A DNA stretch of 64,000 nt from a virus, in IMG/VR virus record IMGVR_UViG_3300035698_011578, positions 31,477 through 95,476 of that record, one strand, 5' to 3'. The notes beneath the pieces are model-generated. The model was not told where the DNA came from. It made no database searches and worked only from the letters and a program-made list of their open reading frames with translations. Shown here in pieces: positions 13,702 to 44,852 of this stretch; the stretch's first letter is position 1, and each line of letters begins with the position of its first letter. Position numbers and translations under genes: made by a program.

Positions 13702-13772
13702 AGCAGGATACCTTAATCGAAAAGGCGACTCAATATTGGAAGTATCGTATGTTACCACTACACCAATCCTGC
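13702..13772 (-). tRNA. tRNA-Gly(TCC)
   Basis: Cloverleaf, stem CGATA/TATTG, loop CT-TCC-AA. Confidence 0.85.
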
Positions 13773-13780
13773 ATTTTTTG

Positions 13781-13852
13781 AGCAGTAAGGGAATTATGAT
13801 ATCCCGACCTCGACCTTGGCAAGGTCGCACTCTTCCTCTGAGCTATTACTGC
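13781..13852 (-). tRNA. tRNA-Gly(GCC)
   Basis: Stem CGACC/GGTCG, loop TT-GCC-AA; atypical T loop. Confidence 0.85.
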
Positions 13853-13866
13853 AATTTATTGTGTTA

Positions 13867-13915
13867 TGGCGCAGAGAGGAATCGAACCTCAACACACTCA
13901 CATTTCTTAGTAGAG
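13867..13915 (-). pseudogene. tRNA 3' remnant
   Basis: T-arm GAGG-TTCGATT-CCTC and 3' acceptor strand only; no 5' half found. Confidence 0.45.
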
Positions 13916-13938
13916 AAGTCAAAAAACGAACCCTCTAG

Positions 13939-14014
13939 TGGAAGCGATGGGAATCGAACCCACCAAACAATCTGGTTGCAAACCAAATTCGCCAGCCTTG
14001 GAACATGCGCCCCC
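13939..14014 (-). tRNA. tRNA-Ala(TGC)
   Basis: Loop TT-TGC-AA; G3:U70 pair in acceptor stem. Confidence 0.85.
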
Positions 14015-14024
14015 GTTTTATTAG

Positions 14025-14101
14025 TTGGTGAAGAGGGACTCGAACCCTCATGTGACCAATTACCATTTCAACACGATATAAGCGTGAGTGGATATTCACC
14101 A
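14025..14101 (-). tRNA. Atypical D-armless tRNA-Ile(TAT)-like RNA
   Basis: Acceptor TGGTGAA/TTCACCA, 8-nt linker, CACG-CTTATAT-CGTG, 22-nt extra region, canonical T arm. Confidence 0.65.
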
Positions 14102-14103
14102 AT

Positions 14104-14141
14104 AAAAAAAAGCAGTCACTTTTTGAAAGTGACTGCTTTTT
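14104..14141 (-). terminator. Attenuator terminator of Ile/Ala/Gly tRNA operon
   Basis: GCAGTCACTTT-caa-AAAGTGACTGC followed by T8 on minus strand. Confidence 0.85.
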
Positions 14142-14164
14142 AATTTTTTAATATTTCTGAGATA

Positions 14165-14245
14165 TTAAATAACATAATTCAGCCACCCGAAGTTCCCTCC
14201 TGCTATACCGTTGCCGTTTGCCGCTATGTTATTAATTGTTCTCAT
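14165..14245 (-). CDS. Leader peptide MRTINNIAANGNGIAGGNFGWLNYVI
   Basis: Hand translation; ATA GCG GCA AAC GGC AAC GGT ATA GCA GGA GGG; GTGGCTG pairs with terminator 5' arm CAGTCAC. Confidence 0.85.
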   Translation of the reverse strand: MRTINNIAANGNGIAGGNFGWLNYVI

Positions 14246-14346
14246 TGTTATAATTTTTCTTTTTACTGTTGTTATATATTAAAGTTTTATTCTCTCTTTT
14301 GTTGTTTTTCGTATTATCTTATGCAAATATAAGGCAAAAGTTTTAA

Positions 14347-15327
14347 TTATCCAAATTTATTTACACTTTTCTTCATAATTTTAAAATAATCTGATATAGT
14401 TTTTTCATAACTTTCCCTCTCTTTGTAATTCTCAACAATATAATTGTAGTTGTCTTTCAATTCTAATACACCGTTAATAACATTATCTATCCTAATACTA
14501 GGAACATTTTTCAAGAAACACATCCTATTAAAATCATTAATCATCACACCATTACCATTAACCAATTCAGGTAATCCACCAGATGATGTGTATAGAATAG
14601 GTAACTTACATTTAACTGCTTGACAAGTTACTTTAGAACCAGCATCTCTAAAAAATGGTGAGATGAATGCATCACACATACTAATAAGATTACACATCTC
14701 TGTCCTATCATCTATATAACCATATTTGATTATATTTTCAGGTAGTTCTTCAATATCACACTCACCTATCAGATAAAATAAATCATTGTCAAATATTTTT
14801 GACATGGCTATAATAGTTGATAAACGTTTACCCTCTCTCTCCCAATTACTACAAGAACTAATCCATTTAAACACCTGATTAGATTCCTTTTTATCCGGAT
14901 TATAATCTTCAGAATTATTTAATATGACAATATCATTATCATATTCTACATCATAAAGTTCTTTAAGTGTGTTCTTTGAATAATTTGATATAAATATAAC
15001 AAAATCTGATTGATAACCGGCATCTATATGTAACTTATTTTTATAATCGAATTCTTTTCTCCAATAAATACCATCCATTCTTTTAACTTTGGGTATATTA
15101 TTCAATTCAGACCACTCTAATACTTCTTTAGAATAAAATGTGTTTGTTATAATAATATCTGCTAATTTGTAATCAGATACACGATTAAACCCATAATTAC
15201 CTGCATACCTACACAAGTCGTGCATTATATCATTTTCTTTAGGCCCGAAAGATTTGACACTATGAAGTGTATTACTTACTCTATTATTTGAGCAATCATA
15301 ATAATTTTTAAGCATTTCTCTTTTCAT
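14347..15327 (-). CDS. Glycosyltransferase (GT-B, family 4-like)
   Basis: DAFISPFFRDAGSKVTCQAV..LPILYTSSGGLPELV C-terminal GT4 pattern. Confidence 0.75.
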   Translation of the reverse strand: MKREMLKNYYDCSNNRVSNTLHSVKSFGPKENDIMHDLCRYAGNYGFNRVSDYKLADIIITNTFYSKEVLEWSELNNIPKVKRMDGIYWRKEFDYKNKLHIDAGYQSDFVIFISNYSKNTLKELYDVEYDNDIVILNNSEDYNPDKKESNQVFKWISSCSNWEREGKRLSTIIAMSKIFDNDLFYLIGECDIEELPENIIKYGYIDDRTEMCNLISMCDAFISPFFRDAGSKVTCQAVKCKLPILYTSSGGLPELVNGNGVMINDFNRMCFLKNVPSIRIDNVINGVLELKDNYNYIVENYKERESYEKTISDYFKIMKKSVNKFG

Positions 15328-16081
15328 TTACCCACCAATCTGTTTTAATTTTCAACATAGTATCATCATCTTCGAAGTGTAATATCCAACCTTCTTTATT
15401 CTCTACATCCTTCTTCAATTCCAATATATCAGTTAATGAGTATGAATATTCATTAACAATTGGAACCTCATCTATATCTTTAATATCTAAGTACTTACCA
15501 GTTTTATTACATCTCAATTTAAGAAGAACCATATCCTCATAATCATACTCAACATATAATTTCTCACCTATTAATTCGAATATTGGTTGTTTATTTTGTA
15601 ATAAGCAAGATTCTATAAATTTATAATATTTAGGATTTTCTAAATATTTATTACCAGAAACATTTGTTTTAGTATAGAATCCCTTTTTTGTCTGTGATGT
15701 AATACTACCATCAGGTAACATGATGAAAGTTAATAAGAAACCATCTAACTTTTCAGTTATATTTTTAATTGGTTTATCTATAAATTTATCCAGTACACAA
15801 TGTTTATATTGATCTAATTCCCAGAATTTGCTTAACATTAAATTTCTACGAAATAAAGAACCATCATCATTAAATGTGAAGGATAGCCCTTTTAGTTCAA
15901 GTGCATTAATATTTGGTTTATCTATAATAGGTAATTTGAAATTATTATAAGTGGCATGTCTATAACCGAATATAGATAAATCATAACTATTTATTATGAA
16001 ATTACTTTCATAGAAATACATCTTAGGATTAGATTCAATTATTTCTAAACATTCTGTATATTCTGGTAGGTAAAAACTCAT
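15308..16081 (-). CDS. RNA ligase, T4 Rnl1-like (short)
   Basis: KFWE, EKLDG (motif I), FEL (III), EGWIL (IV), KIKTDW (V). Confidence 0.8.
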   Translation of the reverse strand: MSFYLPEYTECLEIIESNPKMYFYESNFIINSYDLSIFGYRHATYNNFKLPIIDKPNINALELKGLSFTFNDDGSLFRRNLMLSKFWELDQYKHCVLDKFIDKPIKNITEKLDGFLLTFIMLPDGSITSQTKKGFYTKTNVSGNKYLENPKYYKFIESCLLQNKQPIFELIGEKLYVEYDYEDMVLLKLRCNKTGKYLDIKDIDEVPIVNEYSYSLTDILELKKDVENKEGWILHFEDDDTMLKIKTDWWVNEKRNA

Positions 16082-16117
16082 TTATATTTTATTGATAAAA
16101 ACTAAATTTGTTTACTA

Positions 16118-17581: not shown

Positions 17582-17630
17582 AAAACAAAATTTATATTTA
17601 ATACTATATATTAAAAAACAATTCCAAAAA

Positions 17631-18655: not shown

Positions 18656-18687
18656 CTTTTTTAATATATAAAATAAAAAGTTTTAAA

Positions 18688-19542: not shown

Positions 19543-19545
19543 ATT

Positions 19546-21064: not shown

Positions 21065-21154
21065 CTATATTATAATTTTAACTATATGCAAATATACTAA
21101 AAATTTCAATTACATATCAATTTTTAGTATATTATTTTTAGTTTATTATGTTTG

Positions 21155-21235
21155 TGGGTAAAGAGAGATTCGAACTCACAAACCCGAAGGCCACGGGGTT
21201 ACAACCCGCTAGGCAACCAACTGCCCAATTTACCC
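21155..21235 (-). tRNA. tRNA-Tyr(GTA)
   Basis: GCGGG-TT-GTA-AC-CCCGT, long variable arm. Confidence 0.8.
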
Positions 21236-21244
21236 AATTTTGAG

Positions 21245-21312
21245 AAGCACATAGGGGAATCGAACCCCCGTTTACTGAAAATCTGTCGTCCTAACCACTA
21301 GACGAATGCGCC
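21245..21312 (-). tRNA. tRNA-Glu(TTC), anticodon stem damaged (possible pseudo-tRNA)
   Basis: Glu-type D arm TTCGTCTAGTGGTTAGGAC; ACAGA-TTTTCAG with 3' stem strand mostly missing. Confidence 0.65.
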
Positions 21313-21319
21313 ATTTTTG

Positions 21320-21402
21320 TGGGCCGGGAGGGATTCGAACCCCCGAACTCGAAAGAGAGATGTTTTACAGACACCGTGCTTTAACCTCTTGCATACCGAC
21401 CC
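21320..21402 (-). tRNA. tRNA-Tyr(GTA)
   Basis: GGTGT-CT-GTA-AA-ACATC, long variable arm. Confidence 0.85.
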
Positions 21403-21415
21403 AGTTTTTTATAAC

Positions 21416-21453
21416 AAAAAAAACCAATCTAACATTTATGTCAGATTGGTTTT
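21416..21453 (-). terminator. Attenuator terminator of Tyr/Glu tRNA operon
   Basis: AACCAATCTGACA-taaa-TGTTAGATTGGTT followed by T run. Confidence 0.85.
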
Positions 21454-21477: not shown

Positions 21478-21543
21478 CTATCTATCTGACAAAATTTTCA
21501 TTTTCTCTTCATAATAATAAGCTATGTTTGTTATTGTTGTCAT
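21478..21543 (-). CDS. Leader peptide MTTITNIAYYYEEKMKILSDR
   Basis: TAT TAT TAT GAA GAG run; TGTCAGAT pairs with terminator 5' arm ATCTGACA. Confidence 0.85.
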   Translation of the reverse strand: MTTITNIAYYYEEKMKILSDR

Positions 21544-21638: not shown

Positions 21639-21710
21639 TAGCGGGGACAGGACTCGAACCTGCGACCTCCGGGTTATGAGCCCGACGAGCTGCCTCTGCT
21701 CTACCCCGCA
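21639..21710 (-). tRNA. Initiator tRNA-fMet(CAT)
   Basis: GGG/CCC in anticodon stem, 1:72 mismatch, CT-CAT-AA loop. Confidence 0.9.
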
Positions 21711-22159
21711 ATATTGTATTTCTATATATTAAAAAGTTGGTCTCCCTTTTACAAAAGTAGTAAAAATTTATGAGAATATCAAACATTATTATATGCCCTC
21801 AGTGTAAATGGGAAATCAAATACGATAAATCCACCTGTTATTTCATCTTTTATGTCCAAATCATCATTAGCAAGTTTTGACATGTCACATCTTGTAAACG
21901 ACTCAGCATCTTTATAAAGATAATTATATGTTGATATATTTTCAATACCCACAAAATCTTTTATTCTATAAATTATATCAGATATTTCACTGAAATAATA
22001 AGGTTCAGAATACAATAAGAATGGAAGGATTATCTAAAGATATAGAAAAGAATTCCATCTCACAAAGAACTAGATTATATGTTCGCTATTTAAGTAGAAA
22101 TCCAATACCTAATTTTAAATTAGAGACCAATAGCAACACAATAAAATTAATTAAAAATA

Positions 22160-22540: not shown

Positions 22541-22556
22541 GTTTTGTTAGTGATAA

Positions 22557-34419: not shown

Positions 34420-34516
34420 AGTATTTTTTATTACAAAAATTTTATTACCTTTGTGGTAAAGAGTTAAGAATGTGCTTAAAATGAACAAAATTCAAACTTT
34501 TTTAAAAATAAACGAT

Positions 34517-34575
34517 AATAAATTTGGATAATTAAAACTTTTACCGTATATTTGTATAAGATAATGAGAAAATAA
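34517..34575 (+). promoter_or_regulatory. Bacteroidota-type promoter block; identical 59-bp copy at 43217..43275
   Basis: TTTG-N20-TATATTTG; followed in both copies by TTTTAATATATA and a leader ORF. Confidence 0.8.
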
Positions 34576-34610
34576 CAAAAACAGAGAATAAACTTTTAAT
34601 ATATAAAACA

Positions 34611-34721
34611 ATGAAAAACAGAAATCTAAATATGAACACGAATTTAACACTCAACGTAGTGAATATTACTTTATGTAATATTAGACGAACTGAGGGTTGT
34701 GATCAATTTAGACTTTATTGA
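34611..34721 (+). CDS. Leader peptide MKNRNLNMNTNLTLNVVNITLCNIRRTEGCDQFRLY
   Basis: Residues 3-27 use only N,R,L,M,T,V,I,C; CTGAGGGTT (34690-34698) pairs with terminator 5' arm. Confidence 0.85.
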   Translation: MKNRNLNMNTNLTLNVVNITLCNIRRTEGCDQFRLY

Positions 34722-34748
34722 AAGAAATAAAAAGACTAAACATAAATC

Positions 34749-34784
34749 AAACCCTCAGAAATAAAAAATTCTGAGGGTTTTTTT
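34749..34784 (+). terminator. Attenuator terminator of 15-tRNA operon
   Basis: AAACCCTCAGAA-ataaaaaa-TTCTGAGGGTTT followed by TTTT. Confidence 0.9.
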
Positions 34785-34799
34785 ATGTAATGAAAAATT

Positions 34800-34872
34800 G
34801 GATTAGTAGCTCAGTTGGTAGAGCAATTGTTTGTTAAACAAAAGGTCGCTGGATCGTGCCCAGCCTAGTCCG
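34800..34872 (+). tRNA. tRNA-Asn(GTT)
   Basis: Loop TT-GTT-AA; acceptor GGATTAG/CTAGTCC. Confidence 0.8.
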
Positions 34873-34880
34873 CAACAAAA

Positions 34881-34892
34881 TGTTCTTTGACG
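34881..34892 (+). promoter_or_regulatory. boxA-like antitermination site
   Basis: TGTTCTTTGACG resembles rrn boxA TGCTCTTTAACA. Confidence 0.55.
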
Positions 34893-34916
34893 TATTGGGA
34901 TATAAAAATTAAAAAC

Positions 34917-35003
34917 GATTGTGTTGCCGTAGTTGGTCGAACGGTCCAGACTGTTAATCTGGTGAGTTAAACTCCACCGTAGGTTCGAATCCTACCACAA
35001 TCG
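34917..35003 (+). tRNA. tRNA-Asn(GTT), long variable arm
   Basis: CCAGA-CT-GTT-AA-TCTGG. Confidence 0.85.
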
Positions 35004-35066
35004 CTTAATAAACTTCGTTAATATGAAGTTGTGTAGTTTTAATATATAAAAGAAAATATTAAAATT

Positions 35067-35765
35067 ATGAGTGAATTAAGAAATAAAATAATAGAATTAA
35101 GAATTAATGGTAAAAAATATACAGAAATAAGTGAGATATTAGGATGTTCTAAATCAACGATAAGTTATCACTGTAAACGAAATAAAAAAATAATTTATAT
35201 CGAGAATGTTGATATTGAATCACAGACAGAAATAGTAGAATATCGAGAAATTGGTTTAAGATTAATAGAAATATATGAAAAATTAGAAAAAAGAATAACT
35301 AAAGAAAATATTAAAATAATATGTAGAAAAAATGGATTATCTTATTTAGATAGATTAAATGAAGAAGATATAAATAAGATTCGTGAGAAATATAAAGAAA
35401 TAGGTAAACTTAGAAAAGTTGCCAGAATATTAGGATATAGTTTTAGCACAGTTAAAAAAAATGTTATTGATTTAATTGAAGATTTTAATAAAAATAAGAA
35501 AAATATAAGTAATTCAGAATCTGTTATAAATTGGAGAAAAAGAGTTAAAATAAAATTAGTAGAATATAAGGGAGGGAAATGTGAAAGATGTGGTTATAAT
35601 AAGTACGTGGAAGTCTTAGAATTCCACCATAGAGATGAGTATGAAAAAGATTTTACAATATCAGGTAAATCTTGGTCATATGAAAGATTAAAAAATGAAG
35701 TTGATAAATGCATTATGCTATGTTCAAATTGTCATAAAGAAATGCATATAGAGAATAAAAATTAA
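35067..35765 (+). CDS. HNH homing endonuclease with HTH repeats, inside tRNA array
   Basis: CERCGY...LEFHH...LCSNCHKEMH. Confidence 0.85.
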   Translation: MSELRNKIIELRINGKKYTEISEILGCSKSTISYHCKRNKKIIYIENVDIESQTEIVEYREIGLRLIEIYEKLEKRITKENIKIICRKNGLSYLDRLNEEDINKIREKYKEIGKLRKVARILGYSFSTVKKNVIDLIEDFNKNKKNISNSESVINWRKRVKIKLVEYKGGKCERCGYNKYVEVLEFHHRDEYEKDFTISGKSWSYERLKNEVDKCIMLCSNCHKEMHIENKN

Positions 35766-35771
35766 TAAAAT

Positions 35772-35856
35772 ACCGGGGTGTCGTAATTGGTAGCCGAGAC
35801 AGACTTAAACTCTGTTGATCCTTGTGGTCGTGAGGGTTCAAATCCCTTCCCCGGTA
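35772..35856 (+). tRNA. tRNA-Leu(TAA)
   Basis: ACAGA-CT-TAA-AC-TCTGT, long variable arm. Confidence 0.85.
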
Positions 35857-35864
35857 CAATACAA

Positions 35865-35936
35865 GGTTCCTTCGTCCAACGGATAGGACTTCAGTCTTCT
35901 AAACTGATAATATGGGTTCGAGTCCCGTAGGAATCT
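35865..35936 (+). tRNA. tRNA-Arg(TCT)
   Basis: TCAGT-CT-TCT-AA-ACTGA. Confidence 0.85.
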
Positions 35937-35949
35937 CAAAATATAAAAT

Positions 35950-36030
35950 ACCTCTGTGGCGAAATGGTTCACGCAGCATGTTTAGAACTTGTCTCCGAGA
36001 GGACTGTCGGTTCGACTCCGACCAGAGGTA
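35950..36030 (+). tRNA. tRNA-Leu(TAG)
   Basis: Loop TT-TAG-AA, weak anticodon stem, long variable arm. Confidence 0.7.
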
Positions 36031-36038
36031 CAAAAAAT

Positions 36039-36121
36039 AGGACTATGGTGTAATTGGCAACATCCCACTGTTACATGGTGGAGACGTGAAGTAAATCTCG
36101 GTTCGAGTCCGAGTAGTCCTA
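36039..36121 (+). tRNA. tRNA-Val(TAC), enlarged variable region
   Basis: CCACT-GT-TAC-AT-GGTGG. Confidence 0.8.
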
Positions 36122-36126
36122 CAAAA

Positions 36127-36203
36127 CGGTGTGTATACCCTCCGGCTGATACCCGGTTGAAAGGTTAATTGGTTACACGTAGGTTCAATTCCTACCTCAC
36201 CGA
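36127..36203 (+). tRNA. Atypical D-armless tRNA-Ile(GAT)-like RNA
   Basis: CCGG-CT-GAT-AC-CCGG after an 8-nt linker; same layout as 14025..14101. Confidence 0.7.
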
Positions 36204-36212
36204 CAAAAACAC

Positions 36213-36284
36213 GTACCTGTGACCGAGTGATTTAGGTAGGCGGCTGCAACCCGTCTTACGGGGGTTTGAATCCCTCCAGGTACT
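36213..36284 (+). tRNA. tRNA-Cys(GCA)
   Basis: GGCGG-CT-GCA-AC-CCGTC, U73. Confidence 0.85.
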
Positions 36285-36292
36285 CTAAATTT

Positions 36293-36364
36293 TGGAGATT
36301 AGCTCAGTGGAAGAGTAATTCCTTGACGTGGAATAGGTCAACAGTTCAATTCTGTTATCTCCAA
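36293..36364 (+). tRNA. tRNA-Val(GAC)
   Basis: ATTCC-TT-GAC-GT-GGAAT. Confidence 0.85.
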
Positions 36365-36370
36365 CAAAAT

Positions 36371-36453
36371 GCCTTCTTCGCATAGTGGCTATTGCACCTG
36401 ACTTTAATCAGGCGAGGTAAAACTCATCGTGGGTCCGAGTCCCACAGAAGGCT
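36371..36453 (+). tRNA. tRNA-Thr-like gene with 6-nt anticodon loop
   Basis: CCTGA-CTTTAA-TCAGG; equals CTTGTAA (Thr TGT) minus G; GCC-starting acceptor. Confidence 0.6.
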
Positions 36454-36466
36454 CAAAATTTAATAT

Positions 36467-36535
36467 TGCGAGAGATTCGGCAATCGTCATCGGCTCATAT
36501 CCTTTGACAAGTGGGGTCGGCACCCATTCTCGCAA
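36467..36535 (+). tRNA. Degenerate tRNA-Met(CAT)-like gene
   Basis: Acceptor TGCGAGA/TCTCGCA, loop CT-CAT-AT, reduced D arm. Confidence 0.55.
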
Positions 36536-36542
36536 CAACAAT

Positions 36543-36615
36543 GGCGCTTAAACATTTACTGGATGATGTCTAGTCTTGTAAACTAGGTAAGTGGGATCGT
36601 TACCCTCAAGTGCCT
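36543..36615 (+). tRNA. tRNA-Thr(TGT)
   Basis: CTAGT-CT-TGT-AA-ACTAG. Confidence 0.8.
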
Positions 36616-36622
36616 CAAAAAT

Positions 36623-36693
36623 GCTTTCATAATTCAATGGCAGAATACTAGCTTGGTATGTTAGATATAGCAGTTCGAGTCTGCTTGAAAGCT
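36623..36693 (+). tRNA. tRNA-Thr(GGT)
   Basis: CTAGC-TT-GGT-AT-GTTAG. Confidence 0.85.
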
Positions 36694-36700
36694 CAAAAAT

Positions 36701-36772
36701 GTCGCAGAAGTTCAATGGATGAATAAGGCTCTTCTAAAGCTTTGGTTGTGGGTTCGAGTCCCACCTGTGACT
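36701..36772 (+). tRNA. tRNA-Arg(TCT)
   Basis: AGGCT-CT-TCT-AA-AGCTT. Confidence 0.8.
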
Positions 36773-36780
36773 CTAGATTT

Positions 36781-36862
36781 GCATTGATGGTGGAATTGGT
36801 AGACACGCTGGCCTAAGAAGTCAGTGCCGAGAGGTGTAAGAGTTCGAATCTCTTTCTTTGCA
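36781..36862 (+). tRNA. tRNA-Leu(AAG)
   Basis: CTGGC-CT-AAG-AA-GTCAG, Leu-type D loop and long variable arm. Confidence 0.8.
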
Positions 36863-37249
36863 CAAAAAATAAAAAATTCATCAAATTTATGAAACAAAGC
36901 AGTATGTATTGGATATATACTGTATAAATCATTTGGTTTTGTTAGTTTCGAGTCTTATTTTAGGCTTCCAAATTGTTTAACAGCAATAAAGAAATTCGCA
37001 ATTCAAAAATAAAAATAAATAAAGATGATGAAAAAATGGTCTCTATCCGAGATTTGTGAATATATTAATTTATATAACCCAATCGTAATTTTACTTAGAA
37101 TTCCTATAGATCTTTTTAAATCTAAAAAGATAACTCATCATCATAACTTAATTTTAAACTTTAAGCATGAATATAGTCATGCTATATAAATAATTTTGGT
37201 AATGTTTTTAACTGAGCATTTCAAAAATAAAAATAAAAAATTAATTATT

Positions 37250-38032
37250 ATGAGTCATTACAGATTATTAGACAAAAACCCATCTGCTATAATCACCGTA
37301 GCAGGTAGCGAGAAGAAAATTTATCAAAACAATGAAATTTTTCTTAACGATGGTGAAAATTTTGAATTTAGATTCTTCAATCCACTACAAGTGAAAATTG
37401 GAATTGAGATTATTTTCGATGGTGTTAAAAAGAACAATGGATACCTAGTGTTAAAACCAGGACAAGACATCGTTCTAGATAGATTCATCGATGAACAAAG
37501 AAAGATGAAGTATGAAACATACACCATTGATTCTAACAACTCCGATGCGGTTCAAGCAGCTGCTATGAATGGTGTTATTGAAATCAAATTTTATACTGAG
37601 GAAGTTTATAGACCAAAACCAGTTATGAGAGGTCGTAAATTATCAAAAAGTAAAAGTTGTGGGTCAAATTTTAATTCAAGGATGTATTCATCACCAGGTG
37701 TATACACAAATGAATTAGACCAAAGTACTTCTGCTGATGTAAACTATTCAGATTATTCTACACTTAGTTGTTGTTCTGGAATGGGTTCCATTGATTACTC
37801 ACCAGAGGAAACCGGAAGAATAGAAAAGGGTGAAGATTCTGATCAAGAGATGAAAACTGTAAATGTTGAATTTGGTAACAGACCAATACATTCAATTGTT
37901 TATAGACTAAAACCAACTTCACAATTAAATGAAGGAGTTTCTGAAATCAGACAATATTGCTCAAGCTGTGGTTATAGATTGCGTAAACAAACATGGCAAT
38001 ATTGCCCAAAATGTGGCGAAAAATTAGATTAA
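37250..38032 (+). CDS. Hypothetical protein with C-terminal zinc ribbon
   Basis: YCSSCG...YCPKCG; probable ATG 37250. Confidence 0.7.
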   Translation: MSHYRLLDKNPSAIITVAGSEKKIYQNNEIFLNDGENFEFRFFNPLQVKIGIEIIFDGVKKNNGYLVLKPGQDIVLDRFIDEQRKMKYETYTIDSNNSDAVQAAAMNGVIEIKFYTEEVYRPKPVMRGRKLSKSKSCGSNFNSRMYSSPGVYTNELDQSTSADVNYSDYSTLSCCSGMGSIDYSPEETGRIEKGEDSDQEMKTVNVEFGNRPIHSIVYRLKPTSQLNEGVSEIRQYCSSCGYRLRKQTWQYCPKCGEKLD

Positions 38033-38062
38033 ATCTGATTTATAAAAAATAAAAATAAAAAT

Positions 38063-38683
38063 ATGAAAACAAAAATTATATGCATTTTAGATAAATCAGG
38101 TTCAATGTCATCAATTATAAGTGATGCGATTGGAGGATTTAATAGTTTCTTAGAGGAACAACAACAAATAGATGAGGTAGCGAGTATGGATATTATTCTA
38201 TTCAGCAACATCTATGAAAAAATAGTTGATAATATCGACATAAGAGAAGTTAGCAAACTAGATAGAGAATCTTATAGGACTAGTGGAACAACTGCACTTT
38301 ATGATGCAATTGGTAGAACAATAGAACATGAGTTAGATTTATATGGTGATTCCCCAGAAAATAGACCAGATAAGACATTATGTGTTATTTTAACTGATGG
38401 TGATGAAAACTCTAGTAGAATGTTTAATAAAGAAAAAATTAAACTAATGATTGAAGAAATGAAAGAAGACTTTAAGTGGGATTTCATATTCTTAGCAGCT
38501 AACCAAGATGCTTGTTTAACAGCAGATGGTATAGGAATATCACGAGGTAATTCCATGGATTTCTCTGGTGATAGTGAAGGAATTAAAGTAGCTTATAGTA
38601 GTATGAGTAGTGTTGCTTCATATTATCGAACAAGTAGTGTTGTCGAAAATAGCAATAATCTATTTGAAGATAGTAGAAAATAA
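38063..38683 (+). CDS. von Willebrand factor A domain protein
   Basis: ILDKSGSM, GTTALYDAIG, ILTDGDENSS (MIDAS). Confidence 0.9.
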   Translation: MKTKIICILDKSGSMSSIISDAIGGFNSFLEEQQQIDEVASMDIILFSNIYEKIVDNIDIREVSKLDRESYRTSGTTALYDAIGRTIEHELDLYGDSPENRPDKTLCVILTDGDENSSRMFNKEKIKLMIEEMKEDFKWDFIFLAANQDACLTADGIGISRGNSMDFSGDSEGIKVAYSSMSSVASYYRTSSVVENSNNLFEDSRK

Positions 38684-38690
38684 TTTAATG

Positions 38691-38725
38691 AAAACCCACT
38701 TTAATGTAAAGTGGGTTTTCTCTTT
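38691..38725 (+). terminator. Intrinsic terminator (AAAACCCACTT/AAGTGGGTTTT family)
   Basis: Same stem at 39131-39165 and 43175-43203. Confidence 0.8.
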
Positions 38726-38755
38726 TAATATATATGTAAAATAAAGAAATTTAAA

Positions 38756-39115
38756 ATGGTACATATTAAAAAATTAAATGAAAATTCACTCGCAGATAGA
38801 TTATCAAACTTTTATAGCGAATATAGAGAATTGTGTAATGTTGAAGACTATGATAATCATGAATTGTGGACAGAAATAGGACAATTAACTCTTAAATATA
38901 AACTAACAAAGAGTGAAGTTAAGCATGTATTAGAAAATTTCAATTGTAGATTTGATGTCAATAGATTTTTAGAACAAACGTTAAAAGATTGGGATAAAAA
39001 TGTTGATGAATCTTGGGACAGTATATTTCAAGAAGTTCTCGATAATAATATTAGAATTCCAATGGAATTAAGAACATACTTAAAGAAAAGTTATAAAGTA
39101 CCAGTTAAGAAATAA
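38756..39115 (+). CDS. Hypothetical protein with MVHIKKLNE motif
   Basis: 119-aa ORF. Confidence 0.7.
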   Translation: MVHIKKLNENSLADRLSNFYSEYRELCNVEDYDNHELWTEIGQLTLKYKLTKSEVKHVLENFNCRFDVNRFLEQTLKDWDKNVDESWDSIFQEVLDNNIRIPMELRTYLKKSYKVPVKK

Positions 39116-39130
39116 ATAAATTTATTAATA

Positions 39131-39165
39131 AAAAAACCCACTTGATAAAAGTGGGTTTTTGTTTT
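39131..39165. terminator. Bidirectional intrinsic terminator
   Basis: A-run-CCCACTT-gataa-AAGTGGG-T-run between convergent genes. Confidence 0.8.
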
Positions 39166-39569
39166 TATGATTCTTCTTCTTCTTCTTCATTATCAATTGT
39201 AGGAAGTTCCATTTTCCTAATAGTGCTAACATCACCATCTTTTAATTCGAGTTCTGTTATCTCTTCTAATAATTTAACAATATAATCATCTGCAGCAATA
39301 CTCTCTCTTTCTATTTGAAGACAAAATTGTGCAAGTATGCCTATTTCATCTTTTTTCTGTGCCATTTTGAAGATTTCTGAATTTAGTTTATATTTAGATA
39401 ATCCTCTAAACTTTCTACGAGTATAGAAATCATAAAAATCTTGATTCTGTCTTGAGATTACATAAGACGGTCTTCTAGAAGTACCAAACAATTCGGTCCT
39501 AGCTTTTTCATTCATTTCTTTAGAGTTACTACCATCATCTTCAAATTCATCAAATCTTTTAATTTCCAT
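39165..39569 (-). CDS. Hypothetical protein with MEIKRFDEFE motif
   Basis: 134-aa ORF. Confidence 0.7.
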   Translation of the reverse strand: MEIKRFDEFEDDGSNSKEMNEKARTELFGTSRRPSYVISRQNQDFYDFYTRRKFRGLSKYKLNSEIFKMAQKKDEIGILAQFCLQIERESIAADDYIVKLLEEITELELKDGDVSTIRKMELPTIDNEEEEEES

Positions 39570-39589
39570 AGCTTATATATTAAATTTAT

Positions 39590-41857
39590 TTATTCATAAT
39601 TTAATGGGAATTTACTTAAATAAATTCTAGTTGTTGCGTTATCACCAAATATTAAATATTTAGAATCATCACCTATTATATACTGATTTAGTATTTTATT
39701 CTGAACATTTTCCGGTATAACATCACTGAATAATCTTATATTAGTTATCTTCATATCAGATGCTAATATAACTGGGTTAATATCAAGATTTTGAATTCTA
39801 TATTCAATTGGTGTCATATCAATTTTTTCTTGATACAATTTTCTTAATACAGTACTACCTAATTTATCTGCATCCTCTTCATAATCAACATCTCTTTTGT
39901 ATATGAATTGCTCTATGTGTCTTTGTCTTTGATTTATATTTAATACATAACAATGCCAAACATCTTCTTCAAGGGCTACTGGTTCACCAGATTGATCATA
40001 TCCTAATAAATCAAATGTATAAGTGTCATCATTTAAAACAACTGATATTTTATCATTTGATAAATAGGATTTCCATCCTATTGATTTGTCAGCATCATAG
40101 AATTGTAGGAAATTATAAACCTCATCTCTAAGATAATTATGTATATTGAACCAAATTTGTAGAGAAATATTATCAGACACCTTAAACACTGGGTTTAAGT
40201 TCTTATAAGAAACTGCAACACCACCATAAGGGATGGATGCTAAATCATAGTTTGACTTGCTTATGATAGTAGATGAATTTTCAAGCAATTCTTTATCTAT
40301 CTCTGCAAAATATTCTAATCTAATAGGGTCTTTTGTTAATGGTGTTAATTGTTGCTTGTTAGCAATTGATTTTTTATCCTCTGCTATTTCAACACCAAAC
40401 AATTCATCAATTGTTGTATTCTTAGTAAGTTTATCCAAGTAATTCTTAATTTCTGGATTATCAGTTTGTACATTTGCTTTTTGTGTGAATTTTTTCAATA
40501 TCAATTTGTAATAGACTGCTGAGTTATTAAACCCTCTAAATTGTTGTGCGTGTTCTATCTGATACATTCTATTTACTTGACAGAAATAAAGAAAATCTTC
40601 CTTTGCCGGTCTTCTCTGAACTCCAAATATTTGTTTAAATTGTTGCTTGGTAACATGTGCTTCCATAGTATCAAATAAATCCAAGTCAAAAATATTCATT
40701 TTAATCTGTGAGTCTGGGAAATTATTACCTTCAATTGAAACCTTTAAATCACCTTTACATGCGATGTTAAATAATTGGAATTCATTTAAAGTGTGGTCTT
40801 GTCCTTTTTTATCAGCATCAGTTGCGAAATAAAACACCTTGTGTCCAAAAATTTGTTCTGAATCCGCACTTAATTTTTCTAATAAATTTACTGCCGTATT
40901 CTGTGCATATGGATTGTATAGATTTGCTTTCTCATCATCAGTCATTGGGTCAAATACATTACTATCACATACTCCACTTCCACCAGTACCATCACCACTT
41001 CCACTACCAGTAGAATCCATTGTTGTATTAGGATGATAATTACCATCTGAATCATAATATCCCCATTGGTTAGACTGGCAACACGTTCTTATACCAAACA
41101 AGTTACTTTTTTGATAATCTTTAGTAACATTTTGAAAATCTCCAATTAGATTAATATCTCTAATACTTATTGGTGATCTTGATGTGTTCGTAACTGAATA
41201 TTCAATTTGAAAGAACCTAATAGGATTTATCCTAACTGTTGTTATATTTTCTTTAGTTAAAGGTTCCCATTCTGCCCAAGTTTTTGTGCTATCTTGTGAA
41301 TATCTATATTTTATATCTACACTATCTAAATCAACTTCTGGTATAATCTCAATGTCAGTTATACCAAATACCTTAAATATAAATGGTGACCTCATTATCT
41401 TAGTTTCTGATGGGCCAATTATCATAGTAGTAGATTCATTCATTATGAAATCATTTCTCAATAATTCACCATAAATTTTATATTCTAATAATCGAATAGA
41501 GTCATCTTCTGATTCTCCACTTCTAACCCATTTTATTTCAACATATAGAGGGTCTAGTGGATCTATCTTTGGGAAATTGTCGATATTAATATTAAGATCA
41601 AACCAATCTGTCCAAGATGTACCATTTCTAGATATTCTATAATATTGTAGTAAAAATCTGTCACTATTTAATCCCAGAGTATCATAAGTAAATTTGGTTA
41701 AGTCAGAAACTTTTTGTAAATTTGCTATATTGATTACATACTCATCACCGATATTATTAAAATAAGGTGTGGAATCTTCGGTCCCTTGTTGTGATACATC
41801 AAAATTATCATAAATGATTATTGTGCCGTTGTCTAAATTTGTAGTTACTTCATACAT
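39590..41857 (-). CDS. Probable virion protein: neck (T4 gp14-like) middle region plus LamG-like C-terminus
   Basis: FKQIFGVQRRPAKEDFLYFCQVNRMYQI resembles gp14 RP..GDLIYF; WHCYVLN...ITNIRLFS LamG-like strands; TATATA motif upstream. Confidence 0.5.
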   Translation of the reverse strand: MYEVTTNLDNGTIIIYDNFDVSQQGTEDSTPYFNNIGDEYVINIANLQKVSDLTKFTYDTLGLNSDRFLLQYYRISRNGTSWTDWFDLNINIDNFPKIDPLDPLYVEIKWVRSGESEDDSIRLLEYKIYGELLRNDFIMNESTTMIIGPSETKIMRSPFIFKVFGITDIEIIPEVDLDSVDIKYRYSQDSTKTWAEWEPLTKENITTVRINPIRFFQIEYSVTNTSRSPISIRDINLIGDFQNVTKDYQKSNLFGIRTCCQSNQWGYYDSDGNYHPNTTMDSTGSGSGDGTGGSGVCDSNVFDPMTDDEKANLYNPYAQNTAVNLLEKLSADSEQIFGHKVFYFATDADKKGQDHTLNEFQLFNIACKGDLKVSIEGNNFPDSQIKMNIFDLDLFDTMEAHVTKQQFKQIFGVQRRPAKEDFLYFCQVNRMYQIEHAQQFRGFNNSAVYYKLILKKFTQKANVQTDNPEIKNYLDKLTKNTTIDELFGVEIAEDKKSIANKQQLTPLTKDPIRLEYFAEIDKELLENSSTIISKSNYDLASIPYGGVAVSYKNLNPVFKVSDNISLQIWFNIHNYLRDEVYNFLQFYDADKSIGWKSYLSNDKISVVLNDDTYTFDLLGYDQSGEPVALEEDVWHCYVLNINQRQRHIEQFIYKRDVDYEEDADKLGSTVLRKLYQEKIDMTPIEYRIQNLDINPVILASDMKITNIRLFSDVIPENVQNKILNQYIIGDDSKYLIFGDNATTRIYLSKFPLNYE

Positions 41858-41958
41858 ATCACTATATATTAAAATATGCTTCTGATAATTTGGTAAATTG
41901 AAAAATTTTCCTTATATTTGTATGTAAACAATGAAATATTCATTTAAACCTATTTATA

Positions 41959-43167
41959 ATGAACGATATTAAAAATAAATTTTTAGAACTAACAAGCAGA
42001 ACTTACCCACACGGAACAGAGAAAGATCTTTATTCTCTTTTAGGTGATGGGTTAACTCAAGATAAATACGATAACCTTTTCATAAAAATTGGTGATAGTG
42101 ATACTATGTTTACTGCACACTTAGATACTGCAACATCTTCATTAGTTGATATAAACCACGTAATTGATGGTGATATAATCAAGACTGATGGTAAATCAAT
42201 ACTTGGTGCAGATGATAAAGCTGGTGTAGCAATCATGTTATATATGATAGATAAAAAAGTTCCTGGTTTATATTACTTTTTCGTAGGTGAAGAAGTAGGA
42301 TGTGTAGGTTCGAAGAAAGTAGCAGATGAGCACAAAAAAGAAAAAATAGAAGGAATTTCAAAAGTTGTTTCTTTTGACCGAAGAGGTACTAAGTCAGTTA
42401 TTACTTATCAATGTAGTAAAAGATGTGCTTCTGATGAATTTGCAAAAGCGTTAGCATTACAATTTAACACAGTTGAAGATACTTTCAAATATGATACTGA
42501 TGAAGGTGGTGTTTTAACAGACTCTATACAATTCACAAGTATTTATCCGGAATGTACAAATATATCAGTTGGTTATCAATCAGAACACACACACAGTGAA
42601 TCACAAAATATTGCACACCTTGAAAAATTAGCTATTGCTTGTGTAAAAGTTGATTGGGTTGCACTTCCAGTGAAAAGAGATCCTTCAAAAACAGAATATC
42701 GTTCTTACGGTGGAGGATATGGATGTGGTTATGGATACGGTGATGATTGGAGTGATAATGATTTTGGTTATACAAAGAGAAATTATAAATACAATTCTTC
42801 TTCTTGGAAAGGTAACCACAAATCTAGCAAAGATACTACTTATACAAGCCCAAAAAGCAAATATGCAACTGAACAAATTTGGTTCGTTGATAGTGGATGT
42901 GATTATATCTCATTCGTTGAAGTAGATAAAGCTACTAGAAAATATATAAGTGTAGATTTACACCCTGATAGAGTAGCAAAAGAGGAAATCACAATTGGTA
43001 ATTTCTTACAATCACTAGACCTTAAATATAAGAAAATTACATGGGATGGTTTCAACTTGTTAGTTGATTATAATGGTAAGGGTCACACATCAACTGCTGA
43101 TAGAAATGATTTAGTTGAGTATTTACGCTCAATAGATTACCAAAAGCTAGATGGTGATTTAGTTTAA
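41959..43167 (+). CDS. M20/M28-family zinc peptidase
   Basis: AHLDT, LGADDKAG, GEEVG, FDR, TD, NISVGY..EHT. Confidence 0.85.
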   Translation: MNDIKNKFLELTSRTYPHGTEKDLYSLLGDGLTQDKYDNLFIKIGDSDTMFTAHLDTATSSLVDINHVIDGDIIKTDGKSILGADDKAGVAIMLYMIDKKVPGLYYFFVGEEVGCVGSKKVADEHKKEKIEGISKVVSFDRRGTKSVITYQCSKRCASDEFAKALALQFNTVEDTFKYDTDEGGVLTDSIQFTSIYPECTNISVGYQSEHTHSESQNIAHLEKLAIACVKVDWVALPVKRDPSKTEYRSYGGGYGCGYGYGDDWSDNDFGYTKRNYKYNSSSWKGNHKSSKDTTYTSPKSKYATEQIWFVDSGCDYISFVEVDKATRKYISVDLHPDRVAKEEITIGNFLQSLDLKYKKITWDGFNLLVDYNGKGHTSTADRNDLVEYLRSIDYQKLDGDLV

Positions 43168-43174
43168 AAAATAA

Positions 43175-43203
43175 AAAAACCCACTTTAATTAGTGGGTTT
43201 TTT
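43175..43203 (+). terminator. Intrinsic terminator
   Basis: AAACCCACT-ttaatt-AGTGGGTTTTTT. Confidence 0.8.
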
Positions 43204-43216
43204 AAATAAAAGTGAA

Positions 43217-43275
43217 AATAAATTTGGATAATTAAAACTTTTACCGTATATTTGTATAAGATAATGAGAAAATAA
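43217..43275 (+). promoter_or_regulatory. Bacteroidota-type promoter block, identical to 34517..34575
   Basis: 59-bp exact match. Confidence 0.8.
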
Positions 43276-43309
43276 TAAAAGGAAGAACAAATTTTTAATA
43301 TATAGGATA

Positions 43310-43408
43310 ATGAAAAAAGTAAATGTAAATATAACAGTAGTAAATCAACCGCAAGTTGATCAAGATCCGATTTTAATCAGGACTAGCCGTGCTTTGCAAA
43401 TAACTTAA
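43310..43408 (+). CDS. Leader peptide MKKVNVNITVVNQPQVDQDPILIRTSRALQIT
   Basis: CAA CCG CAA GTT GAT CAA GAT CCG block matches downstream Gln/Pro/Asp tRNAs. Confidence 0.8.
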   Translation: MKKVNVNITVVNQPQVDQDPILIRTSRALQIT

Positions 43409-43430
43409 GTTAAAAAGTTAAAAACAAATA

Positions 43431-43462
43431 AAACCCAGTTAGTTAATTCTAACTGGGTTTTT
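43431..43462 (+). terminator. Attenuator terminator of Asp/Gln/Pro tRNA operon
   Basis: AAACCCAGTTAG-ttaatt-CTAACTGGGTTTTT. Confidence 0.85.
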
Positions 43463-43528
43463 CTATATTGTAACAATAAATGTCAGTTTTTGGTGTTCGG
43501 ATTTCAATATATAAAAATAAAAGAGAAT

Positions 43529-44215
43529 ATGAGAAATAGATATGAGAAAGAATATTTTACTGAAGTAATAAAAAACTCCCAAAACTTATCAGATGTTTGT
43601 AGAAATATAGGATTAAAGAGTTTTTATGGTAATAGACAAACAGTTAAGAAAAATATTGAAAAATATAAACTTGATATAAGTCATTTTAGATACCACAAAA
43701 GTGGTGGTAGAATAAAAATACCAACAAGAGATATATTAGTTGAAAATTCTACTTATAGCAGCACTACCTGTATTAAAGAAAGGTTATATGAAGAGGGCTA
43801 TAAAGAAAGAAAGTGTGAATTATGTGGACAAGGAGAAAATTGGAATAATATGAAGATTAGTTTAATTTTAGATCACATAAATGGGATAAATAATGATAAT
43901 AGAATAGAAAATCTTAGAATAGTTTGCCCAAATTGTAATGCTGGTTTAGATACTCATGGTGGTAAAAATATATCAAAAAACAGTAAGTATAATTATTCAG
44001 AAGATTTAGTTAATAAGAAGTATTATTGTGATTGTGGTAATGAAATGTGGAAAAATTCGAAGTGTTGTAAAGTATGTTTTGATATAAAACAAAGAAGAGT
44101 TAAAAGACCAGATAAAGAAATATTATTAAAAGATGTAGAAAAATTAGGCTATACTGGAACAGGAAGAAAATATAATGTTAGTGATAATACTATTAGAAAA
44201 TGGTTAAAAAAGTAG
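43529..44215 (+). CDS. HNH homing endonuclease
   Basis: CELCG...LDHINGINNDNRIENLRIVCPNCN. Confidence 0.9.
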   Translation: MRNRYEKEYFTEVIKNSQNLSDVCRNIGLKSFYGNRQTVKKNIEKYKLDISHFRYHKSGGRIKIPTRDILVENSTYSSTTCIKERLYEEGYKERKCELCGQGENWNNMKISLILDHINGINNDNRIENLRIVCPNCNAGLDTHGGKNISKNSKYNYSEDLVNKKYYCDCGNEMWKNSKCCKVCFDIKQRRVKRPDKEILLKDVEKLGYTGTGRKYNVSDNTIRKWLKK

Positions 44216-44233
44216 ATGAGTAAAATATAAATT

Positions 44234-44307
44234 GGTTTATTGGGCCCGTGGAGAGGAACTACGCTGTCACCGTAGTAAAATAGACGGATCGTAACCGTTG
44301 TAGACCG
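44234..44307 (+). tRNA. tRNA-Asp(GTC), degenerate D arm
   Basis: CTACG-CT-GTC-AC-CGTAG. Confidence 0.7.
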
Positions 44308-44340
44308 CAAAAATACACTAGAACTAGTGAGAAAATATAT

Positions 44341-44412
44341 TGGTCTGTGGTATAACGGTAATTACACTAGGTTTTGATCCTAGTAATTCCAGTTCGATTC
44401 TGGGCAGACCAT
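44341..44412 (+). tRNA. tRNA-Gln(TTG)
   Basis: CTAGG-TT-TTG-AT-CCTAG. Confidence 0.85.
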
Positions 44413-44422
44413 CAAAAAAATT

Positions 44423-44493
44423 GGCCTATTGGGGTATGGGTATCCTTTCACACTATCACTGTGAAGAACCGAGTTCGAGTCTCGGATAGGCCG
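44423..44493 (+). tRNA. tRNA-Asp(ATC)
   Basis: TCACA-CT-ATC-AC-TGTGA, G73. Confidence 0.75.
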
Positions 44494-44504
44494 CAAAAAT
44501 ATAA

Positions 44505-44580
44505 CTACGAGTAGAGGAGTCCGGTTTATCTCGCTACTTTTGGAAAGTAGAGCACGTTGGTTCAAATCCAGCCTCGTAGA
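44505..44580 (+). tRNA. tRNA-Pro(TGG)
   Basis: CTACT-TT-TGG-AA-AGTAG. Confidence 0.8.
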
Positions 44581-44594
44581 CAAAAAAATAAATT

Positions 44595-44669
44595 ACCCCC
44601 GTAGGCTCCTTGGTGGAGAACTAGACTGTCACTCTAGTAAAATAGACGGATCGTAACCGTTCGAGGGTG
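44595..44669 (+). tRNA. tRNA-Asp(GTC)
   Basis: CTAGA-CT-GTC-AC-TCTAG. Confidence 0.8.
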
Positions 44670-44687
44670 CTAATAAAATATAATAAT

Positions 44688-44760
44688 CTGGGTGTAGCTC
44701 AGTTGGTAGAGTACTGCATTTGGGATGCAGATGTCGTAGGTTCGAGCCCTGCCACTCAGA
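44688..44760 (+). tRNA. tRNA-Pro(TGG)
   Basis: CTGCA-TT-TGG-GA-TGCAG. Confidence 0.9.
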
Positions 44761-44769
44761 CAAATATAA

Positions 44770-44852
44770 TGAGAGTTGGTAGAGTGGTCAATTACGGTAG
44801 GTTTTGAACCTACTTTCGAAAGATGTCGTGGGTTCGAATCACACACTCTCAT
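44770..44852 (+). tRNA. tRNA-Gln(TTG), long variable arm
   Basis: GTAGG-TT-TTG-AA-CCTAC. Confidence 0.8.

Follow-up and report, generated by a model that had tools for sequence, protein, structure and literature searches.

In a 64,000-nucleotide (nt) stretch of viral DNA, the window analysed here (bases 31477-95476 of the 95.5-kb IMG/VR contig IMGVR_UViG_3300035698_011578), four blocks of transfer RNA (tRNA) genes each stand behind a predicted promoter, a short open reading frame (ORF) rich in codons for the tRNAs that follow, and an intrinsic terminator, and we consider it likely that ribosome-mediated (leader-peptide) attenuation gates each of these blocks. The proposal is drawn from the DNA sequence, and all of its predictions that can be tested at that level hold as for attenuators of the trp/his/ilv type: the ORFs, their codon match, the place of the antiterminator, the homologues in other phages and the covariation of the paired strands.

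An earlier note on this DNA had described a succession of promoter, ORF of 21-36 codons, intrinsic terminator with T run and tRNA genes, and this layout is seen at all four tRNA blocks (Table 1). Upstream of each leader ORF the sequence reads TTTG, a 20-nt spacer and TATATTTG, which fits a TTTG about 19-21 nt 5' of TAnnTTTG, an arrangement that we take to be the promoter consensus of the Bacteroidota primary sigma factor; by that consensus the elements, designated P1, are predicted promoters of the Bacteroidota type. Promoter and 5' untranslated region are near-identical among units 1, 3 and 4, which share the 20-mer TTTGGATAATTAAAACTTTT exactly (chance expectation 0.26). In the same three units a second motif, TTTAATATATA (P2), lies between P1 and the ORF. 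The window contains 20 copies of this motif, where 1.1 would be expected; almost all lie 4-28 nt, and many 4-7 nt, 5' of a start codon (for example at 7623, 10878, 13648(-), 18660, 22987, 31000(-), 35038, 38724, 39584(-), 41873(-) and 53154(-)/53170). The motif is probably a phage-specific promoter yielding leaderless or near-leaderless messenger RNAs (mRNAs). The motif is also found 5' of leaders in the uncultured huge phages LR745206 and LR756500.

The leader ORFs of units 1 to 4 stop 23, 24, 27 and 21 nt before the terminator stem, respectively. Dinucleotide shuffling of the upstream regions produces an ATG ORF of 21 codons or more, with its end 15-40 nt 5' of the stem, in just 4-5% of shuffles per unit, so the presence of such an ORF in four of four units is not a matter of chance. 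The other two reading frames of the leaders contain 2-7 stops and give lower match scores. The terminator stems comprise 12-16 pairs, each followed by a T run. Scanned in full against Rfam at gathering scores, the window gave tRNA matches and nothing else, with no T-box or leader family among them, and a scan of unit 1 up to an E value of 10 returned nothing T-box-like. Weak Rfam matches at the terminators (microRNA families, and Thr_leader with 22.7 bits against a cut-off of 55) were discarded as chance matches to the hairpin only.

Codon content of the leaders and its recurrence in other phages

The earlier note had proposed that each leader spells out the tRNAs behind it, and the codons bear this out. 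Leader 1 carries IAANGNGIAGG before Ile(TAT)-like, Ala and two Gly tRNAs, leader 2 carries YYYEE before Tyr, Glu-type and Tyr, and leader 4 carries QPQVDQDP before Asp, Gln and Pro tRNAs, while residues 3-27 of leader 3 form a 25-residue run drawn from N, R, L, M, T, V, I and C only. Within the window, the background for these matches was the composition, or segments, of the contig's own proteome. Against it, 12 of the 25 residues of leader 1 fall in {I,A,G} (P = 4e-4), with ten codons readable by downstream anticodons; a cognate run of five, as in YYYEE of leader 2, begins at 7e-5 of proteome starts; the cognate run of 25 in leader 3 is found at 0 of 26,983 proteome starts, with 27 of the 35 codons readable (25 of 35 if ARAGORN tRNA calls alone are used); and the seven of eight residues of leader 4 that belong to {D,Q,P} are equalled in none of 26,983 proteome windows. 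When every leader is scored against every block in a 4x4 matrix, the cell of the own block tops each row and each column.

The match extends to the level of codons. Nearly every codon of the control blocks is readable by the leader's own downstream anticodons; in leader 1, all four Gly codons are used before Gly(GCC) and Gly(TCC), GCA and GCG before Ala(TGC), and ATA before the TAT gene. Conversely, 21 of the 22 distinct anticodons find a cognate codon in their own leader, compared with 13.7 +/- 2.1 in random proteome segments (P = 2e-4). In all four leaders the match is confined to the frame of the ORF.

To follow the units into other phages, a fixed pipeline was used that takes a terminator ending at most 150 nt 5' of an ARAGORN tRNA, the longest ATG ORF whose end lies 10-60 nt 5' of the stem, and, as the cluster, the subsequent tRNAs on the same strand. 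It yielded 18 units in nine records, three in the window and 15 in eight others, and misses unit 4 of the window because of its HNH insert. With the pooled composition of all leaders as background for the leader-versus-cluster score, the true pairing of the 18 units gave a summed z of 56.7, a value reached by none of 200,000 permutations of the labels (mean 0, standard deviation 6.4, maximum 36.1); for the 15 units outside the window alone, again none of 200,000 permutations reached the true pairing. Eleven of the 18 leaders ranked their own cluster first. Homologous leaders in other phages thus track their own tRNA content; the opposite outcome had been named in the earlier note as a refutation of its proposal.

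Among the records found by the pipeline are the public huge phages of 635, 735 and 462 kb. These are, through common tRNA sequences, the nearest public relatives of the window: LR745206 (634,780 bp), LR756501 (735,411 bp) and LR756500 (462,018 bp), all uncultured. LR745206 has homologues of all four window units. It also carries THKNFSKSHKWFS before His, Phe, His, Phe, Trp and four Lys tRNAs, SKSSSRSSS before Arg and Ser tRNAs, and QQIQQQQINQ before three tRNA-Gln. The last of these, a 16-codon leader (locus L019, 39518-39640) with seven Gln codons, resembles hisL and is the cleanest single-amino-acid example that we have seen. In LR756500, VHIIHIWEHLLEEV precedes His, Glu, Val and Trp tRNAs, and in LR756501, SKHSKHFSSSSKWF precedes Trp, His, His, Phe, Lys and Ser tRNAs. 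The cultured Cellulophaga phage phi4:1 (NC_021788) has a promoter, short ORF and terminator 5' of all three of its tRNA blocks: IQRLHLQELEQP before Pro, Glu, Gln, His, Leu, Leu and Arg; TKTGITVIDKTKGARA, in an ORF annotated as gp075 with a non-ATG start, before Ala, Lys, Ile, Gly, Met, Asp, Thr, Val, Arg and Met; and NYCTYNNSNWSFSY before Tyr, Ser, Asn, Trp and Phe. The three units lie at about 87,050-87,190, 87,990-88,165 and 89,770-89,920 of the phi4:1 genome. The first 14 residues of their leaders match their own block at 11, 12 and 10 positions, compared with 0-4 for the other blocks.

It might be argued that the terminators simply insulate the blocks constitutively, or respond to an antitermination factor of the phage, and that the ORFs and their codon content are incidental, since DNA of about 28% G+C, as in the window, abounds in short ORFs and T runs, and since some related phages and clusters lack such units. 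We regard this as most unlikely. Every unit has an ORF despite the low chance rate given above, the concordance is specific to the frame and exceeds all label shuffles, amino acid replacements in the control block of a homologue lead only to other cognate residues, and terminator and antiterminator have covaried (see below), so that incidental ORFs are already strongly disfavoured. Between unit 3 and its homologue in LR745206, 11 codons of the control block differ, six synonymously and five by replacement, and all five replacements remain within the cognate set.

Alternative RNA folds and the proposed circuit

The earlier note had also claimed, for three of the four leaders, an antiterminator segment just after the control codons, and this was confirmed for units 1-3, where it is significant, and not for unit 4. 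In units 1-3 the RNA directly 3' of the control codons pairs over 9 bp with the terminator's 5' arm; the energies (Table 1) compare with about -6 +/- 1.7 kcal/mol in shuffled leaders. Nascent RNA was then folded with the ribosome footprint masked, in a model that permits pairs across a ribosome at the stop codon, which is physically unlikely. In these folds the 5' arm is sequestered with the A site on any control codon and freed after the ribosome has passed the block, which is the geometry of the trp/his/ilv attenuators and the alternative structure that had been proposed.

The paired strands have been kept in homologues. Across seven homologues of unit 3, 96.8% of the cells of the antiterminator helix are paired, a figure that sliding of the 3' partner lowers to 57% or less, and three pairs have changed on both sides. 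All three of these two-sided changes come from one lineage, L026, and therefore count as one event; in L026, region 2 (the antiterminator strand) and both terminator arms have changed together, with no conservation of the peptide at region 2. In unit 2, one antiterminator pair has changed on both sides relative to the LR745206 homologue, and in unit 1 the core GTGGCTG:CAGTCAC is kept in that homologue. The most conserved stretch of leader 3 among the seven homologues, synonymous sites included, is an 8-bp hairpin within the leader, a candidate pause hairpin for RNA polymerase.

These features also bear on an opposite logic of the pyrBI type, in which efficient leader translation would bring a ribosome close enough to suppress the terminator and stalling would end transcription, giving a feed-forward or timing switch. 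The match between codons and tRNAs by itself carries no sign of regulation, and terminators close to a stop codon can be repressed by ribosomes, 21-27 nt being a range of partial, sequence-dependent repression (PMC4824070). On the other hand, a ribosome that terminates at such a distance exerts little repression on terminators of E. coli (PMC4824070), and the stop-to-stem gaps of the units fall in that escape range. Between the end of each ORF and the stem lie 21-27 nt, which excludes pyrBI-type coupling, where the ORF extends into or over the terminator. Moreover, the segment that immediately follows the control block repeats the terminator 3' arm, is conserved and covaries, which makes sense only if upstream stalling frees it, and the opposite logic would impose positive feedback on tRNA supply without a set point. 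We therefore hold such a switch to be unlikely.

A different objection is that the units work mainly through products in trans, be they micropeptides or terminated leader RNAs serving as small RNAs, with control of readthrough being secondary. Terminated leader RNAs would be abundant, and attenuator-derived trans-acting products, peTrpL and rnTrpL of Sinorhizobium, are documented (PMC7298713, PMC7968998). In the homologues, however, the peptides are not conserved position by position, only the restriction to cognate residues and the pairing of the RNA being kept, and action in trans would leave unexplained why each leader matches its own downstream block. This possibility appears very unlikely to us.

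Under leader-peptide attenuation, transcription would start at the host-type promoter and probably also at the phage motif just 5' of the ORF, and a ribosome would translate the short leader ORF. A ribosome slow on the control codons would leave the segment directly after the block free to pair with the emerging 5' arm of the terminator, and the polymerase would continue into the tRNA genes. With fast decoding, the ribosome would cover the segment or would already have passed it, the terminator hairpin would form 21-27 nt past the stop codon and transcription would end. As the control codons are decoded by the phage's own tRNAs, such a circuit would act by negative feedback and hold each tRNA set at the level that translation needs. 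We infer that the leaders are translated, that transcription and translation are coupled and that readthrough is regulated; the physiological signal would be scarcity, loss of charging or cleavage of host tRNAs. More tentatively, and with real doubt on our side, the leaders of huge Bacteroidota phages of the Mahaphage clade and of flavobacterial phages such as phi4:1 might serve as a checklist of nearly every anticodon in their block. Stalling on it would report the loss of host tRNAs, be it to anticodon nucleases or to another defence that depletes tRNAs, and the phage would replace just the missing ones; the anti-nuclease role in particular, which the earlier note had suggested, is a guess.

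Several observations weigh against attenuation of the blocks. Blocks 3 and 4 contain TTTAATATATA-type motifs that go with their HNH inserts (35038 and near 43505); transcription from these could yield most of either block and bypass the attenuators, and a phage polymerase, if that is what uses the motif, may ignore intrinsic terminators. In leaders 3 and 4 the ATG follows the motif by just 5 nt, which would make them nearly leaderless mRNAs. Unit 4 has no significant antiterminator, its only candidate being a weak 6-bp ACUAGC:GUUAGU pairing (-3.9 kcal/mol, shuffle P = 0.54). The ribosome-free folds of units 1, 3 and 4 are in the antiterminated state, so untranslated transcripts would read through, unlike those of trp. 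The N-terminal parts of every leader are rich in N, I, T and K irrespective of the block, and several of the matched tRNAs are aberrant, namely the Glu-type gene, a CAT element in block 3 and the Ile genes without a D arm. Finally, in four loci that carry this odd Ile tRNA (L007, L013, L016 and L017) the tRNAs are scattered between ORFs with no recognisable units, and several clusters of LR756501 lack a clear leader within 260 nt upstream of the first tRNA called by ARAGORN.

The tRNA genes and their phage

Table 1. Positions of the predicted elements of the four units, of their tRNA blocks and of associated genes, in window coordinates
Feature	Position	Strand	Details
Unit 1 promoter P1	14324..14355	-	TTTG 14355-14352, 20-nt spacer, TATATTTG 14331-14324; read from sequence
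Unit 1 second promoter-like motif P2	14273..14283	-	TTTAATATATA; from motif enrichment
Leader ORF 1	14165..14245	-	ATG, 26 codons; control block codons 7-20: ATA x2, GCG, GCA x2, GGC, GGT, GGA, GGG x2
Unit 1 antiterminator strand (region 2)	14179..14189	-	CGGGTGGCTGA; -12.4 kcal/mol vs shuffles -6.8 +/- 1.6, P = 0.004
Unit 1 intrinsic terminator	14100..14141	-	Stem 14141-14107, 16 pairs and T run
tRNA block 1	13701..14101	-	Ile(TAT)-like, D-armless, 14101-14025; Ala(TGC) 14012-13938; Gly(GCC) 13852-13781; Gly(TCC) 13772-13701
Initiator tRNA-Met with own TTTAATATATA motif	21639..21733	-	Upstream of unit 2 promoter
Unit 2 promoter P1	21585..21616	-	TTTG 21616-21613, 20-nt spacer, TATATTTG 21592-21585; read from sequence
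Leader ORF 2	21478..21543	-	ATG, 21 codons; control block codons 9-13: TAT TAT TAT GAA GAG
Unit 2 antiterminator strand	21483..21492	-	TTGTCAGATA; overlaps last ORF codons; -11.1 kcal/mol, shuffle P = 0.006
Unit 2 intrinsic terminator	21412..21453	-	Stem 21453-21420, 15 pairs and T run
tRNA block 2	21155..21402	-	Tyr(GTA) 21402-21320; Glu-type 21312-21245; Tyr(GTA) 21235-21155
Unit 3 promoter P1	34523..34554	+	TTTG 34523-34526, TATATTTG 34547-34554
Unit 3 motif P2	34595-34605	+	
Leader ORF 3	34611..34721	+	ATG, 36 codons; control block codons 3-27: N, R, L, M, T, V, I, C only
Leader 3 internal hairpin	34662..34682	+	8 bp, AATATTAC / GTAATATT
Unit 3 antiterminator strand	34689..34699	+	ACTGAGGGTTG; copies terminator 3' arm; -16.0 kcal/mol, 0/500 shuffles (P <0.002)
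Unit 3 intrinsic terminator	34749..34785	+	Stem 34749-34780
tRNA block 3	34800..36863	+	Asn x2; HNH ORF; Leu(TAA); Arg(TCT); Leu(TAG); Val(TAC); Ile(GAT), D-armless, 36127-36203; Cys; Val(GAC); class-II 36371-36454; CAT element ~36466-36535; Thr(TGT); Thr(GGT); Arg(TCT); Leu(AAG)
HNH homing-endonuclease ORF in block 3	35067-35765	+	Own TATATA-type motif upstream
Terminator of gene preceding unit 4	43174-43203		5' of unit 4 promoter
Unit 4 promoter P1	43223..43254	+	TTTG 43223-43226, TATATTTG 43247-43254
Unit 4 motif P2	43294-43304	+	
Leader ORF 4	43310..43408	+	ATG, 32 codons; control block codons 13-20: CAA CCG CAA GTT GAT CAA GAT CCG
Unit 4 intrinsic terminator	43430..43466	+	Stem 43430-43461
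HNH homing-endonuclease ORF between unit 4 terminator and tRNAs	43529..44215	+	Own TATATA-type motif upstream
tRNA block 4	44234..44853	+	Asp(GTC), Gln(TTG), Asp(ATC), Pro(TGG), Asp(GTC), Pro(TGG), Gln(TTG)

The only tRNA gene of the window without a leader is an initiator-type tRNA-Met(CAT) (21710-21639(-)), recognised by a 1:72 mismatch and three G-C pairs adjoining the anticodon loop, and the arrangement is identical in LR745206. Its lack of a leader fits the attenuation model, because an elongating ribosome cannot test an initiator tRNA. The HNH insert of unit 4 is absent from the LR745206 homologue.

Several genes within the blocks depart from the canonical form. Neither of the Ile genes, Ile(TAT) or Ile(GAT), has a D arm; in both, 18 nt of extra sequence follow the anticodon arm, and the Rfam scores are 29.8 and 27.4 bits, respectively. 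Their signature GTTGAAAKGKTAATTGGTYACAYG is found in 12 IMG/VR contigs, many of them longer than 400 kb, which argues that the D-armless Ile form is conserved and non-canonical rather than decayed. The Glu-type gene of block 2 has a typical Glu D arm and a UUC flanked by U and A, with the anticodon stem unpaired, and Rfam aligns it with a 3-nt loop; from its sequence it could be either a pseudogene or a non-canonical tRNA. The degenerate CAT element of block 3, read as Met, was detected neither by ARAGORN nor by Rfam and has just 15 nt of the anticodon arm in common with a tRNA-Met of LR745206. The class-II tRNA of block 3, with a long variable arm, has a 6-nt anticodon loop, CTTTAA, and is called '???(tt)' by ARAGORN; it may be a conserved unusual decoder (Leu-like, a frameshift or a stop reader) rather than a pseudogene. 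The same odd call is made in the relative L026, about 1675 nt 3' of the leader hairpin.

Other peculiarities of the tRNA genes were noted in passing. A remnant of a tRNA 3' half (T arm and acceptor strand ending TGCGCCA) lies at about 13937-13860(-), between Ala and Gly(GCC) of block 1. The tRNA-Asp at 44423-44494(+) has the anticodon ATC, with A at position 34, and a 6-bp anticodon stem, and stands alongside two ordinary Asp(GTC) genes. LR756500 has, at 23592 of locus L021, an ARAGORN-called tRNA whose anticodon CTA reads TAG; it is possibly a suppressor or recoding tRNA.

CheckV puts the completeness of the source contig at 13%, which for 95.5 kb implies a very large phage. All of the contig's 25-29 tRNA genes lie within the window. 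The standard bacterial code (table 11) suits the contig, with long ORFs spanning 78% of it; TAG recoding, considered because the phage is huge and AT-rich, was ruled out by this coverage and by the six long ORFs that a TAG codon stops. Genomes longer than 634 kb have been assigned to the Mahaphage clade, with Bacteroidetes as predicted hosts (PMC7162821).

A megablast search against phages gave tRNA-sized matches only, and the exact promoter and leader patterns had no match in IMG/VR. Relatives were further sought through neighbouring genes: the M28 peptidase led to no locus, and the ribonucleotide reductase to one (L005), with no tRNA within 10 kb and a single tRNA in its record. DNA of the phage is present in several salt-lake metagenomes, and no RNA run was listed as containing it. 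When contigs from four salt-lake DNA runs were mapped to 34400-44900, the phage was found at low depth and no informative leader variants were seen, the differences coming mostly from tRNA and HNH genes of other organisms. In two of the runs, X3 and X4, one contig each joins 34608 to 34799, and the TATATA motif would then be directly followed by tRNA-Asn without leader or terminator; this junction is weak, its shorter side comprising just 26 letters at 80% likeness, and it may belong to another phage.

Relation to known attenuation systems

Phages often carry large tRNA sets, and we know of no described regulation of them. The expression of phage tRNAs is usually viewed as constitutive or timed by the stage of infection. 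If the circuit proposed here operates, the phage would gauge the speed of decoding for each codon family and replenish only what is short, and its leaders would provide a direct read-out of the host tRNAs that turn limiting in infection. It would also extend leader-peptide attenuation to RNA genes and to a multivalency of eight amino acids. Should the leaders in addition sense the loss of host tRNAs to defences, they would amount to a counter-defence sensor of a new kind and to the first case of attenuation at tRNA genes. The leaders also offer compact parts for codon-specific translation sensors. Since the cultured pair of Cellulophaga baltica and phage phi4:1 has three such units, the idea is directly testable.

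The earlier note knew of no description of attenuation at tRNA genes, and our full-text literature searches likewise found no paper on it; the words 'attenuat' and 'leader' do not occur in the huge-phage paper (PMC7162821). In E. coli, the leaders of the tRNA-Phe genes measure just 3-4 nt (PMC7049720).

The theory of attenuation is set out in PMC1183508 and the pheL scheme in PMC3082878. The closest likeness is to the enterobacterial attenuators, among them the multivalent thrL (Thr and Ile) and ilvL of ilvGMEDA (Ile, Leu and Val) as well as trpL, hisL, leuL and pheL, with which the phage units share a promoter, a short ORF with clustered regulatory codons, the alternative of antiterminator and terminator, and a T run; in those systems a stall on the regulatory codons frees the antiterminator. 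In contrast to them, the phage units precede tRNA genes (and inserted HNH ORFs) instead of enzyme or synthetase genes, which sets them apart, and the product that would relieve the stall is the tRNA itself, a direct feedback. Furthermore, one phage leader would test up to eight amino acids and 11-12 anticodons, compared with two or three amino acids, and the units are phage-borne, with Bacteroidota-type promoters, no Shine-Dalgarno sequence and no Rfam leader match.

Two other systems tie gene expression to the state of tRNAs. The pheST operon of E. coli, with its pheM leader, is under leader-peptide attenuation. There, too, the supply of a factor for aminoacyl-tRNA formation is tuned by the decoding of its own codons, but the target is a synthetase, a single amino acid is concerned and the genome is cellular. 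The T-box riboswitches of Firmicutes resemble the phage units in that a 5' leader with alternative terminator and antiterminator reports the state of a specific tRNA and controls charging genes. They differ in binding the uncharged tRNA directly and having no ORF, whereas the sensor of the phage units would be a translated ORF and no T-box model matches them. Judged by their sequences, the phage units are thus a variant of the trp/his/thr/ilv type of attenuator that lies outside any described leader family.

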